Below are positions 2,035 to 34,266 of a DNA stretch of 64,000 nt, piece after piece. The first letter of the stretch is position 1. Every line of letters starts with the position of its first letter. Where the stretch lies: contig JARIGQ010000004.1 in the NCBI GenBank assembly GCA_029288775.1, positions 67,303 through 131,302 on the forward strand, read 5' to 3'. The notes under the pieces were generated by a model, which was not told the DNA's origin, did no database searches, and was given only the letters and a program-made list of their open reading frames with translations. The stretch comes from Candidatus Nomurabacteria bacterium. Its GTDB lineage: Bacteria; Patescibacteriota; Minisyncoccia; Phycocordibacterales; UBA5272. The position numbers and the translations under genes are program-made.

Positions 2035-2211
2035 TACGCTACTTTATCATATTTTTGTAAAGAGTGAAATTGTGTATCTAAGTCATTTTCTGTTTCAGAT
2101 ACGAGGCGTGCCGCCTTTGTATAATGAGTTGGACAAATACGTATAATGACGAAGAGAAATACCGCACAATAAAGTAGATGTAATAGAAGGGGACAAAAGG
2201 GTTATATGGAG

Positions 2212-4107
2212 TTACATGAAAAAATGAAGGGGATTCACTTGTGGATGTCCATGAAAAACGACGCGCTTAATGCGTTCGCGCAATGTTGGGTTGTTGGCCC
2301 ATTCGCTTTCCTTAATGTGAATGAAGAGAAGCGTTACACCTCGCCCTGCCTCAAACCATTCGGTGACATAGGGTTCAAGTTCCTGCTTGATACGTGTACG
2401 CATGTCTTCAGGCATGTTTTCGAAGGAAGCTCGAATTACGGTGTAGTAAGGTGGTAAATGAAATTCGTCGCGTTCACGCAAGAGGGTGTCGTAGACTTCG
2501 CGAAAACTTGGCGCAGTAAGCTGCTTGATAATGGTCATTCCTTTGAGCCGAGTTTGGAGAATAAGACGATAGTCTTCGCCTTCCCGAACCTTCTCTGCCA
2601 TTTCTGTTACTAGATTGAGCACTTTTTCATCTGTACGATACTCAGGAAGGGAAAATAATGAATCAAGGGAAAGAATAATCACATGGTCTGCTTTATTCAC
2701 CATGTTGTGGGCCATTTCTGTGCCTATGAGCACGCCATAAGGAGCCTCCAACCACTCTTTGTATGTTTTCTTTACCTTAGTCCTCGTAGGTGTGCGTTCG
2801 CCATCAATGACAAAGAGAGGTATGCCTAAGCGCTTCAATTCTTCTTCTGCTCCAGTTGTAGCTATGCCTAATGTTTGCATGCGCCACCCTCCGCAATGTC
2901 TGCAGGAGAGTGTGGTATCTTCATGAAGCTGAACGATATTTTCGCATCCATGGCACACATAGGTGCGTAGTCCGGCAATTTTATGAAGTACATAGGGTCT
3001 ATTGCATGTCGGGCAGGTAAAGAGGGTGCCACAATCGCTGCATACAGTGGTAGGGTACATACCTTTTCGCTGTGCATAGAGAAAGATATGACCTTTGCCG
3101 CTTAGCTTGGCGTTATGTAGTATGGAAAGTGTTTGCCGTGAAAGATAGGGTGAGGCACTTTTATTTTCATCAATCATCGGCACCACAGCCAATTTCATAT
3201 CATTTCTAAACTGAAGCGGCATGATTTCGTGTGCTTCACGTGTTTTGTGAAGCATGTGTGCACGAAGTGAAAGCATATGCGAGCCTAGTATGCAGGGAAT
3301 AGCACTTCCTTTTGCAAGGTGCTCGAGCACGACACGTTGGTCGTACCCATGATCTCCATGAGTAAAGTAGTAGTGGCTGTGTTCGCGTTCAATAATGACT
3401 AATCCTAAATCTTTTCGAAGCCATGGAAGAAGAGAAGGTGTGGAGAGAATAAGAAGGGCGTGGGTATTTTTCGATAATGCTTGTAAGTTTTCCTTGTACT
3501 GTTTGTCGGTAAGATTGCTGTGAAGGGTTACAACGTATTCGTCTATTCCGCGGGAGAGTTCATCTTTGGCATATTCAAGGTCGGTGATGGTGGGAAAGAA
3601 CATCACCAATGATTTCTTTTTGGAAAAAGATTCGCGTATGGTGGTTTTATAGCGCGTAAGGCGTTCTTTGTAGCTTTGTTCAAGTAATAAAAGTTCAAAC
3701 CCTTTTGTTTCTTCGGGAACGGAAATTGCTGTAAGGCCTTCAAATGCTTTTTCCGAAAGAAGATCATAAATAATCGATCCTAAAGGAATTATAAGATATG
3801 AGGAAACATATGAAAGCGCATTCCAGAGCTTTGGATGGAGAAATCCTTTGGTATGGATTTTGGAAATTTTTTTCACATTAAAGGACGCATGCCGTAGCGA
3901 CTGCTTTTCCTCTTCTGCTTTTTGGGAATCAATGACAAGTGCCCGTGCTACTCGTCGTTTAATGGTTACTTCGGCTAAATCTCCTGCATTTACATCATCT
4001 TTACCAAAATAGGTAAGTTCCTCATACGGAATACCGGAAGCAAGCGGTGCTACAGTAAGGACTTTCATCAGCCAAGTATAGCAAGATATCATACGCTTCG
4101 CTTTCAA
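2212..4107 (-). CDS. priA: Primosomal protein N' (PriA) homolog with degenerate ATPase motifs
   Basis: Aligns to PriA 3'BD, helicase core and Cys-rich zinc-binding region (CSDCG...CPTCN...CHGCEN...CRHCGG). There is no GxGKT P-loop, and DEEH is replaced by EREH. Confidence 0.8.
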   Translation of the reverse strand: MKAKRMISCYTWLMKVLTVAPLASGIPYEELTYFGKDDVNAGDLAEVTIKRRVARALVIDSQKAEEEKQSLRHASFNVKKISKIHTKGFLHPKLWNALSYVSSYLIIPLGSIIYDLLSEKAFEGLTAISVPEETKGFELLLLEQSYKERLTRYKTTIRESFSKKKSLVMFFPTITDLEYAKDELSRGIDEYVVTLHSNLTDKQYKENLQALSKNTHALLILSTPSLLPWLRKDLGLVIIEREHSHYYFTHGDHGYDQRVVLEHLAKGSAIPCILGSHMLSLRAHMLHKTREAHEIMPLQFRNDMKLAVVPMIDENKSASPYLSRQTLSILHNAKLSGKGHIFLYAQRKGMYPTTVCSDCGTLFTCPTCNRPYVLHKIAGLRTYVCHGCENIVQLHEDTTLSCRHCGGWRMQTLGIATTGAEEELKRLGIPLFVIDGERTPTRTKVKKTYKEWLEAPYGVLIGTEMAHNMVNKADHVIILSLDSLFSLPEYRTDEKVLNLVTEMAEKVREGEDYRLILQTRLKGMTIIKQLTAPSFREVYDTLLRERDEFHLPPYYTVIRASFENMPEDMRTRIKQELEPYVTEWFEAGRGVTLLFIHIKESEWANNPTLRERIKRVVFHGHPQVNPLHFFM

Positions 4108-21298: not shown

Positions 21299-21529
21299 AT
21301 GATCAAGGAATTTTTACTCAGACAAGCAGTTAAGCATGGTACGAAAGACCTTCCTAAAGAGCAGGCAGAAATGCTTCAAAAAGCGGTAGATAAGAATCCC
21401 GAACTTTTTGGAAAAATAGCCAAGGAAATCGAGGAGCTCAAAAAACAGGGTAAGCCGGAAATGTATGCCGCGCTTGATGTGATGAAAAAGTATCAGAAAG
21501 AATTGCAGCAAGCGATGACTGCAAACTAG
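21299..21529 (+). CDS. Hypothetical small helical, lysine-rich protein
   Basis: ORF only. Confidence 0.4.
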   Translation: MIKEFLLRQAVKHGTKDLPKEQAEMLQKAVDKNPELFGKIAKEIEELKKQGKPEMYAALDVMKKYQKELQQAMTAN

Positions 21530-21637
21530 TAAAAGTATTTCATCTGCTTTGTCGCTACGGAATTTTTCTCAGTTAATGTAGACCCATCTAGGTCTCCTTC
21601 GAAAAATTCCTAGACTTCTCGGATCCAAAACACTTTT
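21529..21637 (+). ncRNA. Structured ~110-nt repeat element, copy 1 (candidate novel ncRNA or 3'UTR structural element)
   Basis: About 80% identical to 33822-33934; internal perfect 10-bp inverted repeat GGAATTTTTC/GAAAAATTCC; outer stem with compensatory change. Confidence 0.5.
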
Positions 21638-21660
21638 CCAAGTTTGTCGGACAGAGAATG

Positions 21661-21692
21661 AAAAAAGCCACGCATGAGTGCGCGGCTTTGAC
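21661..21692. terminator. Intrinsic terminator downstream of repeat copy 1
   Basis: GCCACGCA-TGAG-TGCGCGGC hairpin followed by TTTG and preceded by an A-run. Confidence 0.55.
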
Positions 21693-33413: not shown

Positions 33414-33821
33414 ATGAGTACAGAAACAAAGAATCGCTATATCGAAGCTGTTGGCCGTCGCAAGACCGCTATTGCTCGCGTGCGTATCACTCCTTCAACC
33501 AAGCCTTCCTTTATCGTAAATGACAAGGATGTAAAGGAATACTTTACGACAAATGATCTTCAGGTACTTGCACAGGAAGCATTTTCAAAGTCAGACATCG
33601 GTGAGAAGTTTGCAATTACCGTTAAGGTAGTAGGAGGTGGCATTCATGCACAAGCTGAAGCTATTCGTCATGGACTTGCTCGTACGCTTGTAGAGCGTGA
33701 TGAACAAGTCAAGAATACCTTGAAGAAGCTTGGGTTCCTCAAGCGTGATTCACGACAGGTGGAACGCAAGAAGTTCGGACTCAAAAAAGCTCGCAAGGCT
33801 CCAACCTGGTCTAAGAGATAG
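33414..33821 (+). CDS. rpsI: 30S ribosomal protein S9
   Basis: C-terminal KKFGLKKARKAPTWSKR. Confidence 0.95.
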   Translation: MSTETKNRYIEAVGRRKTAIARVRITPSTKPSFIVNDKDVKEYFTTNDLQVLAQEAFSKSDIGEKFAITVKVVGGGIHAQAEAIRHGLARTLVERDEQVKNTLKKLGFLKRDSRQVERKKFGLKKARKAPTWSKR

Positions 33822-33934
33822 TAAAACTGTTTCATCTACTTTGCCGCTACGGAATTTTTCTCAGTTAATGTAGTTCTAGCTGCATCTCCTTCGAAAAATT
33901 CCAAGGCTTCGCGTAGCTAAAACAGTTTTCCTGC
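33822..33934 (+). ncRNA. Structured ~110-nt repeat element, copy 2
   Basis: Same element as 21529-21637; nested stems AAAACTGTTT/AAACAGTTTT, GCTACG/CGTAGC and GGAATTTTTC/GAAAAATTCC. Confidence 0.5.
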
Positions 33935-33965
33935 TCTTAACGCGCAATTAATTATTTTTTATAGT

Positions 33966-33998
33966 ACAAAACCGCTCGCAAGAGCGGTTTTGCTTTAG
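33966..33998 (+). terminator. Intrinsic terminator downstream of repeat copy 2
   Basis: ACCGCTCGCAAGAGCGGT followed by TTTGCTTT. Confidence 0.65.
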
Positions 33999-34032: not shown

Positions 34033-34266
34033 ATGGCAATACTCACCACGATCGGTCTCATTATTCTTATCATTTTAGGCATATTGATGGTGGTGCTTTT
34101 GGCGTATGCTCTTCGCCTTTTACTTACGATTTATAGTTTTTTTAATGTTCCTAAAAAAGAAGTGGAAGGAGAAAAGGAGCATACACTAATCAGATTTATT
34201 AAAAGTGCGGGAGTGCTAGAAATAATTCTTTTTTTCCTCCGCAACCGAGGTCGTTTTCGTCGTTAA
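34033..34266 (+). CDS. Hypothetical small membrane protein (2 TM)
   Basis: ORF only; highly hydrophobic. Confidence 0.35.
   Translation: MAILTTIGLIILIILGILMVVLLAYALRLLLTIYSFFNVPKKEVEGEKEHTLIRFIKSAGVLEIILFFLRNRGRFRR

Follow-up and report, generated by a model that had tools for sequence, protein, structure and literature searches.

The stretch analysed here, termed the window, comprises 64,000 nt of a contig of 'Candidatus Nomurabacteria' (JARIGQ010000004.1). Between rpsI, which encodes ribosomal protein S9, and grpE-dnaK-dnaJ it carries a 110-nt hairpin that belongs to a family of structured gene-end elements, previously undescribed and without an Rfam model. The order at the locus is rpsI, the hairpin (copy 2), a 35-nt spacer, a terminator-like hairpin, a small open reading frame (ORF) and grpE-dnaK-dnaJ; the features are collected in Table 1. 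S9 homologues 92-93% identical to the window protein carry Pfam PF00380. An earlier annotation made from the letters of the window only (the sequence-only reading) had placed the element right after the rpsI stop, and the element does begin at this TAG codon. Copy 2 looks like a member of a family that occupies many gene ends, not a regulator of rpsI. Loci of other genomes are cited by number (L001 and so on).

Table 1 Features of the rpsI locus and of the other copies in the window
Feature	Position	Strand	Basis or remark
rpsI (ribosomal protein S9, 135 aa)	33414..33821	+	ORF and translation; TAG stop 33819-33821
rpsI TAG stop	33819-33821	+	with the last codons, 5' strand of the hairpin base
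P0, 5' strand TAAGAG	33812..33817	+	in the rpsI Lys-Arg codons; minimum-energy fold with flanks
Copy 2 core	33822..33931	+	covariance model, 112.6 bits (R1) and 99.1 bits (R2)
P1 (outer stem)	33823-33832/33920-33929	+	AAAACTGTTT pairs with AAACAGTTTT
P2	33836-33839/33913-33916	+	CUAC with GUAG; minimum-energy fold and family covariation
P3	33846-33848/33905-33907	+	GCU with GGC; minimum-energy fold and family covariation
P4 (inner stem)	33851-33860/33893-33902	+	GGAATTTTTC pairs with GAAAAATTCC
P5 (apical)	33869-33873/33880-33884	+	helix of the five-helix fold
P0, 3' strand CTCTTA	33934..33939	+	complementary to 33812-33817
Spacer ACGCGCAATTAATTATTTTTTATAGTA	33940..33966	+	between the P0 3' strand and the terminator hairpin
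Intrinsic-terminator-like hairpin CAAAACCGCTC GCAA GAGCGGTTTT GCTTT	33967..33996	+	fold
Copy 1	21527..21639	+	from the TAG stop of a 76-aa ORF (21299-21529) upstream of ychF; 93.1 bits
Hairpin after copy 1	21664-21689		minus strand carries the T run (AAAGCCGCGCACTCATGCGTGGCTTT TTTCATTC); plus strand has TTTG only
Copy 3, decayed	2084..2191	-	model matches of 37.7 and 39.9 bits; many stem pairs broken

Structure of the rpsI element

Copy 2 has a five-helix fold (P1 to P5). The 116-nt element folds at -36.2 kcal/mol (z = -7.0), a value that none of 200 dinucleotide shuffles equalled, and element and terminator together fold at -59.1 kcal/mol (z = -6.4). The 10-bp outer and inner stems described in the sequence-only reading exist and correspond to P1 and P4. 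Its middle stem was upheld in part: GCTACG (33846-33851) and CGTAGC (33912-33917) are complementary, but this pairing is peculiar to copy 2 and is not conserved in the family. Similarly, the outer stem is real, but the helix does not end there and continues through the stop codon into rpsI. The terminator reported to follow copy 2, AAAACCGCTC-GCAA-GAGCGGTTTT with GCTTT, is present; a simple terminator scan missed it because its A/T arms absorb the T run, and it is evident in the fold. The element itself, with an A/U-rich base and a 3' end reading ...UUUUCC, does not have the G+C-rich hairpin and U tract of an intrinsic terminator.

A scan of the window predicted no promoter-like site between rpsI and copy 2, nor on either strand adjoining copy 2, the antisense strand included. 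The proposal that copy 2 is co-transcribed with rpsI as a 3' structure is therefore supported only indirectly, by a position between stop and terminator with no intervening promoter-like site. Co-transcription is also favoured across the family, whose approximately 100 members lie sense to a gene ending at or within about 14 nt, where one is identifiable. Small ORFs within the element, inspected by eye on both strands, are 4-6 codons long and without conservation.

Identification and extent of the family

A sensitive blastn search against 92 rpsI-centred loci returned many homologues of two kinds, type A (window-like) and type B. The R1 covariance model, built from 16 type A copies with 30 pairs, identified 36 sense-strand copies in the 1.5 Mb of these loci, including copy 3 of the window. 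A locus-independent scan of metagenomes for two conserved motifs gave 58 contigs, of which the model confirmed 51, with 60 copies. The family comprises approximately 100 distinct copies, 97 after de-duplication. The R2 model was applied to 1.08 Mb from the nearest relatives and from distant Paceibacteria and found just one further copy; the family is therefore patchy and limited to a subclade, namely a subclade of the Paceibacteria ('Ca. Nomurabacteria'-type bacteria of the candidate phyla radiation, CPR). Metagenomes contain many S9 homologues of 91-93% identity, and the genome records are labelled Paceibacterota, Parcubacteria or 'Ca. Nomurabacteria'. On the antisense strand the copy 2 locus scored only 40.3 bits (R1) and 29.6 bits (R2).

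Searches of Rfam 15 gave no match above the gathering threshold in the window. Permissive scans (E up to 10) of both intact copies returned chance-level matches only, the best of which (E = 0.17) fell on the terminator. Exact patterns taken from the loops of the window copies had no match in genome, metagenome and viral collections, which did not include the source genome; its S9 and its 76-aa protein are likewise absent from the records. A viral origin was considered and rejected, as neither of two pattern matches in viral contigs was confirmed by the covariance model. Full-text literature searches turned up no relevant account of an element of this sort in Patescibacteria or Parcubacteria.

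Covariation was assessed on 77 distinct copies. Double-sided changes were seen at 29 of the 30 pairs, and 91% of cells were paired, compared with 69% in shuffles and about 40% when partners were slid. The stems are 84-91% Watson-Crick across the family. The outer stem covaries (UA, CG and AU at one pair) and reads AAAATTATTT in type A and AAATATTGAG in type B; between the two intact window copies one of its G-C pairs is swapped to C-G. The conserved part of the family is the internal loops, which are asymmetric, and not the terminal sequences. The 3' internal loop of type A carries a conserved UCUCC, replaced in type B by GCCUUGG. The apical stem carries GTAG/CTAC or GTAC, and GTAG/GTAC is found there only.

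Position and polarity at gene ends

Wherever an upstream gene could be recognised, the element lies on its sense strand. Measured from the first model position, 52 of 54 non-redundant copies from metagenomes have the stop codon at -14 to +6 nt, as do most copies of the first set (approximately 90% overall). The copies follow unrelated genes, which encode S9 (12 genomes), YchF, DnaJ, GrpE, AlaRS, RpoA, S4, Trp/Tyr-RS, a decarboxylase, FtsZ, MreB, KhpA, FtsW/RodA, an M23 peptidase, a HAD hydrolase, a VirD4-like ATPase and a PBP-like protein, the last called from its C-terminal sequence only. Judged by GC skew, the G-poor strand carries 8 of 69 copies, copy 3 of the window among them, and these too are sense to their gene; polarity tracks the gene, not the replication strand. 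Some genes stop inside the element and end in residues that it encodes, such as a grpE (...NKN*) and the 76-aa ORF of the window. An ordinary terminator follows most copies, and some copies lie within operons without one (rpoA-rplQ, L003:6962, and rpsD-rpoA). The implied tie of the element to rpsI, or to a highly expressed ribosomal protein operon, was not sustained, as the nearest relatives lack it there and dozens of unrelated genes carry it.

A basal helix made from host codons

The base of the hairpin is specific to the host gene. At each locus the last codons of the gene, and often the stop codon too, pair with the immediate 3' flank of the element; this helix is designated P0. In copy 2 the stop codon UAG pairs with CUG (33931-33933). 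At other rpsI copies synonymous codons and 3' flank change together, with AAGCGC/AGCGCT in L018, AAACGA/TCGTTT in L040 and AAACGT/ACGTTT in L027, L028, L015 and L041, and in L046 the pairing spans 17 bp of ychF. The anchored flank helix had a median length of 7-8 bp for cognate flanks, compared with a mean of 3.2-3.5 bp in non-cognate controls, and reached at least 6 bp in 74-85% of cognate cases and in 7-13% of controls. With 378 Watson-Crick pairs and 16 G.T pairs, the near-pure Watson-Crick pairing makes the helix look templated rather than slowly selected. Pairing of stop codons as a general habit of window genes and terminators was ruled out (5.1 paired nt, compared with 5.4 in controls).

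A related arrangement was seen at ordinary terminators. L016:3432-3500, L017:10394-10460 and L049:10394-10455 are perfect palindromes of more than 30 bp, each consisting of the final 12 nt of rpsI (Ser-Lys-Arg-stop), an ordinary terminator hairpin and then those 12 nt again as their exact reverse complement. Plain terminators can therefore also gain an outer stem templated by the gene end.

The antisense strand is the better folder

Both strands of the 77 copies were folded with 12-nt flanks using RNA parameters. The antisense strand was the more stable in 75 of the 77 (mean -50.0 compared with -36.1 kcal/mol, p = 3e-14), an unexpected preference of about 14 kcal/mol that holds in direction with DNA parameters. 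The preference arises because two conserved positions in P1, which are A.C mismatches in the sense orientation, become G.U pairs in the antisense; variants at these positions are Watson-Crick pairs. Of the two folds it is thus the weaker that the mRNA carries, with its interruption directly beside the stop codon. That the best-folding strand is the antisense and not the mRNA strand also counts against the implied tie to rpsI. An excess of wobble pairs was considered as a sign of selection on the sense RNA and was ruled out, since G.U did not exceed A.C in the sense stems (36:38 and 20:48).

Insertion, exchange and decay

Gene order around rpsI is the same in the nearest relatives. Of these, L001, L002 and L004-L012 (S9 91-93% identical) have a terminator 5-15 nt after the rpsI stop and no element, and the element is likewise absent after rpsI in L013. 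In L005-L008 a window-like terminator context, TTTTTTA(C/T)AGTACAAAACCGC..., comes straight after the stop. The site of copy 1 is also empty in L001 and L002, where the spacer between a 75-aa ORF and ychF is only 60 nt. These empty sites in the nearest relatives identify both intact window copies as lineage-specific insertions between stop and terminator. The rpsI insertion moved the old terminator about 145 nt downstream; the hairpin at 33967-33996 would be this ancestral rpsI terminator, to judge from the homologous terminators of L005-L008. Comparison of the filled with the empty site further suggests that the spacer at 33940-33966 may be a degraded copy of the ancestral rpsI end, for which L005 has AAGCGTTAA and TTTTTTACAGTAC. 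On conservation in related genomes, by which the sequence-only reading had proposed to judge the element, the outcome is divided: the nearest relatives lack it at the site, but 12 of about 50 more distant relatives have it there.

At L003 the rpsI site holds a hairpin of the same architecture and different sequence. L003 and the empty L001 encode identical S9 proteins; over the last 60 nt of rpsI the two differ by 10 mismatches, compared with about 2.6 per 60 nt upstream, and an identity of about 95% resumes beyond the element (L003:8200-8400, L001:10350-10450). This pattern points to import by recombination of a gene end probably carried together with its element. Type B copies at rpsI share 79-93% identity across genomes in which the synonymous sites of rpsI share 50-65%, and similarity among elements is incongruent with similarity among rpsI genes. 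Co-transfer of the rpsI 3' end with type B found no support as a general rule, since the final 51 nt of rpsI are as well conserved in carriers (0.87) as in non-carriers (0.89).

Tandem arrays stand directly after rpsI in L055:10402-10749 (three copies) and L015:3047-3285 (two copies); the members are of different subtypes, those of L055 being 45-58% identical. Insertions of 25-30 nt interrupt the 3' arm or apical region of type B copies at L028:9059-9200 and L049:10506-10640, and decayed copies were seen in L017 as well as in the window (copy 3). Between element and terminator, the rpsI sites of L003, L014, L041, L047 and L049 retain an 'old' rpsI end, AAGCG[TC]TAA. Such ends often read Ser-Lys-Arg-stop with synonymous differences only (for example AGT AAG CGC TAA), and three of them lie in series at L049:10394-10700. 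The series suggests that modules of gene end plus hairpin may have been inserted repeatedly upstream of older ends. A conserved direct copy of the gene end is found at rpsI sites only and not family-wide.

Other copies and features of the window

The claim that copy 2 is the second of its kind was confirmed: copy 1 is 84% identical to it over 113 nt, and the two share a 23-mer for which the chance expectation is 0.00. Both are nearest to the consensus-like copy L094. Several pairs of copy 1 are broken; its P0 pairs CAAACT (21522-21527) with AGTTTG (21641-21646). The 76-aa ORF at 21299-21529 ends QQAMTAN*, where its relatives end QELFQK*. Its new end, GCAAACTAG, is the complement of AGTTTG, which is already present in the 3' untranslated region (3'UTR) of the empty-site relatives, and the insertion appears to have rewritten the C-terminus. 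The hairpin at 21664-21689 may be a poor terminator for its upstream ORF. Copy 3 starts between about 20 nt (R2) and 26 nt (R1) past the stop of a CxxC-rich, minus-strand ORF of 631 aa (2212-4107) without a Pfam hit; it lies on the G-poor strand and is sense to this gene.

In the window, the rpsI-grpE spacer also holds a 77-aa membrane ORF (34033-34266). L002 and L004 have a 139-aa ORF in this spacer, and in one strain an insertion sequence with an rve integrase and an HTH_38 domain (L011:947-1969) directly follows the rpsI terminator. The spacer seems to be a general insertion hotspot. Beside the 75-aa ORF of L001, a gene (L001:1-30) has Avd-like domains (PF05635/PF22296), known from the accessory protein of diversity-generating retroelements, and reverse-transcriptase systems are therefore present in the lineage. 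Template and variable repeats of a diversity-generating retroelement were rejected as an account of copies 1 and 2, whose differences, inspected by eye, are not adenine-specific and which are non-coding.

Discussion

Several known repeat families resemble the element in part. REP elements are thought to stabilise upstream mRNA, and they occur in both orientations. REP units are single hairpins of 20-40 nt with a GTAG or CGTC head and a RAYT transposase (PMC3733652), and a subset no more than 15 nt from the stop codon reportedly stalls ribosomes and reduces translation (PMC12306157, citing its reference 17). REP and BIME sequences are, like the present family, transcribed extragenic palindromes in 3'UTRs. 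Unlike them, the family has a 110-nt, five-helix fold, a single orientation and a host-specific basal helix, and resides in CPR bacteria. The element is not a 20-40-nt palindrome with a terminal GTAG or CGTC tag, and no RAYT was found among the precomputed Pfam calls in L001-L012 and L153-L162 with flanks of at most 20 kb.

ERIC (IRU), Correia/NEMIS and Stenotrophomonas SMAG sequences are multi-copy imperfect palindromes of 100-150 nt that are transcribed together with neighbouring genes and are able to change C-termini; as RNA hairpins they influence mRNA stability or are substrates of RNases. The family shares their size, palindromy, multiple copies and, probably, co-transcription, but has no detectable sequence relationship with them and a different host phylum. 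Terminal repeats of 26 bp are conserved in Correia elements, which also have TA duplications, whereas the family has a covarying terminal stem and no target duplication. Miniature inverted-repeat transposable elements (MITEs) are similarly small, non-coding and numerous, differ in presence between relatives and form hairpins when transcribed; their terminal inverted repeats matching a parent insertion sequence and their direct target duplications were not found here. Integron attC sites are imperfect palindromes of 57-141 nt that lie after ORFs, often over the stop codon, in a fixed polarity and with the bottom strand as the active fold. In behaviour only, the family is like them in its location at the 3' ends of ORFs, its fixed polarity, its conservation of structure over sequence and its better-folding antisense strand. 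Unlike attC, it lacks the R'' and R' sites (R'' in 4, R' in 1 and both in 1 of 79 copies), its neighbours are housekeeping genes in conserved synteny and no integron integrase was seen in the annotated loci. The family fails the testable defining features of REP/BIME, ERIC, Correia, SMAG and attC sequences. To our knowledge, no reported family is almost exclusively stop-embedded and in a single orientation, or has a base made from the last codons of its host gene.

We favour, with confidence that goes about half way, the reading that the element is a new non-autonomous, duplicative or mobile gene-end palindromic repeat of the REP/ERIC/Correia kind, passively co-transcribed in the 3'UTR. On this proposal it would occupy the few bases between stop codon and terminator, always sense, and would arrive with, or soon gain, a Watson-Crick inverted copy of the last codons of its host, which would place the stop codon in the hairpin base. 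In the rpsI 3'UTR it would be transcribed passively; the sense hairpin would fold less well than its antisense counterpart, since P1 is interrupted beside the stop codon by two conserved A.C mismatches. A terminating ribosome could melt the A/U-rich base, and the upper hairpin would persist as a 3' structure. The strand relevant to propagation would be the better-folding antisense single strand, as single-stranded DNA or cDNA. Spread would proceed by templated (snap-back-like) insertion, together with homologous recombination moving gene end and element between lineages, and the polarity with the weaker fold would be the one tolerated in mRNA. Effects on rpsI expression, such as altered stability of the mRNA 3' end, RNase processing or slowed termination, would be side effects, as is known for REP, ERIC and Correia sequences.

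Several observations weigh against a mobile repeat. No transposase, recombinase or reverse transcriptase is linked to the family. Its terminal sequences are not conserved as transposon inverted repeats, the outer stem covarying and types A and B differing. Target-site duplications did not exceed chance, the direct match between gene end and 3' flank scoring 11.9 compared with 11.0 for non-cognate flanks. Copies on the same contig are no more alike than those on different contigs (0.61 and 0.59), so that recent bursts within genomes are not backed as a general pattern. In one species the rpsI copy is present in each of the 11 contigs sampled. Strict orientation and stop proximity would call for a target that itself dictates orientation, such as a terminator, or for strong purifying selection, and high conservation relative to synonymous sites could equally reflect a function for the host.

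The main rival is accordingly a host-beneficial RNA module that acts in cis on the sense strand of the 3'UTR, stabilising or processing the mRNA or tuning termination or ribosome release, kept by selection and with its spread secondary; we regard it as possible but distinctly less probable than a mobile repeat. In this proposal the internal loops would be a protein-binding site, in keeping with the strong covariation and the conserved asymmetric loops. The strict sense orientation following the gene, a stop codon that in about 90% of copies is no farther from the helix than a ribosome footprint, conservation of the element above that of rpsI synonymous sites, fixation in the one species of which 11 contigs were sampled and the ribosome stalling reported for stop-proximal REPs in E. 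coli all agree with it. Against it stand the poorer folding of the mRNA strand in nearly every copy, with the two conserved non-Watson-Crick positions A.C in the sense strand and G.U in the antisense strand, the lack of a G.U excess in the stems, the absence of the element from the same genes in the nearest relatives and the different loop motifs of types A and B. Within that species, moreover, the element is no less polymorphic than the coding sequence, with 3 of the 4 variable sites inside it, although the sites are few. A host RNA module would account for polarity and conservation, but not for the strand asymmetry or the patchiness. The stability of the antisense strand under both parameter sets, its two conserved wobble pairs with Watson-Crick variants, and stems of high Watson-Crick content would instead suit a folded antisense single strand that serves as a substrate for site-specific recombination or an HUH nuclease, analogous to attC, REPIN-RAYT or IS200/IS605, the mRNA copy being irrelevant. 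The attC-like position over the stop codon, fixed polarity and length of 105-135 nt, and the GTAG/CTAC or GTAC of the apical stem, also fit. We think such a substrate unlikely: only 1 of 79 copies has both attC core sites, RYYYAAC and GTTRRRY, the neighbours are core genes in conserved order and not cassettes, orientation does not follow GC skew, unlike that of elements using lagging-strand single-stranded DNA, and no integrase or RAYT gene was seen among the annotated loci, where no systematic search was made.

A small regulatory RNA is less probable still. It would be derived from the 3'UTR and pair with ribosome binding sites in trans through the CU-rich, anti-Shine-Dalgarno-like loop UCUCCUUC, or would act as a cis-antisense RNA over the region of the stop codon. 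The conserved UCUCC in the 3' internal loop of type A and the better folding of the antisense strand speak for it, and the long basal helix could serve as an RNase III processing stem. Type B has GCCUUGG in place of the CU-rich motif, dozens of near-identical genes for one small RNA would be unusual, no promoter-like site adjoins copy 2 on either strand, and cleavage in P0 or P1 would strip the stop codon from essential mRNAs. Least credible is a regulator specific to the locus, such as a feedback site for ribosomal proteins in rplM-rpsI or a CIRCE-like control of grpE-dnaK-dnaJ, as might be suspected from the position between rpsI and grpE. Its distribution refutes it: the nearest relatives have this gene order but lack the element at the position, and many unrelated genes are followed by it. 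In addition, the window has no match to CIRCE (TTAGCACTC-N9-GAGTGCTAA) with up to 3 mismatches, and no Rfam leader or other family matched. A more far-reaching proposal, to which we give about the same modest credence as to the host RNA module, is a new class of mobile element or recombination site that would colonise stop codons as a folded antisense single strand (single-stranded DNA or cDNA) and copy the last host codons in inverted orientation by snap-back synthesis, each copy thereby making its hairpin base from its host gene, or else an RNA device coupled to translation termination and spread by CPR bacteria to many of their housekeeping genes.

The genomes of CPR bacteria (Patescibacteria) are very small and streamlined, and we know of few repeats or non-coding RNAs described in them. 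An element of 110 nt in about 100 copies, with near-complete covariation and strict placement and polarity, is a substantial unannotated feature of these genomes. It explains odd gaps of 100-250 nt after conserved genes in metagenome-assembled genomes of Paceibacteria and can mislead the calling of gene ends; the R1 and R2 models enable its annotation. If mobile, the family would represent a way of targeting gene ends and of making host-specific helices, and core genes would have their C-termini and stop codons rewritten by it. Were it a functional RNA, it would be a widespread 3'UTR module in bacteria whose post-transcriptional control is essentially unknown.

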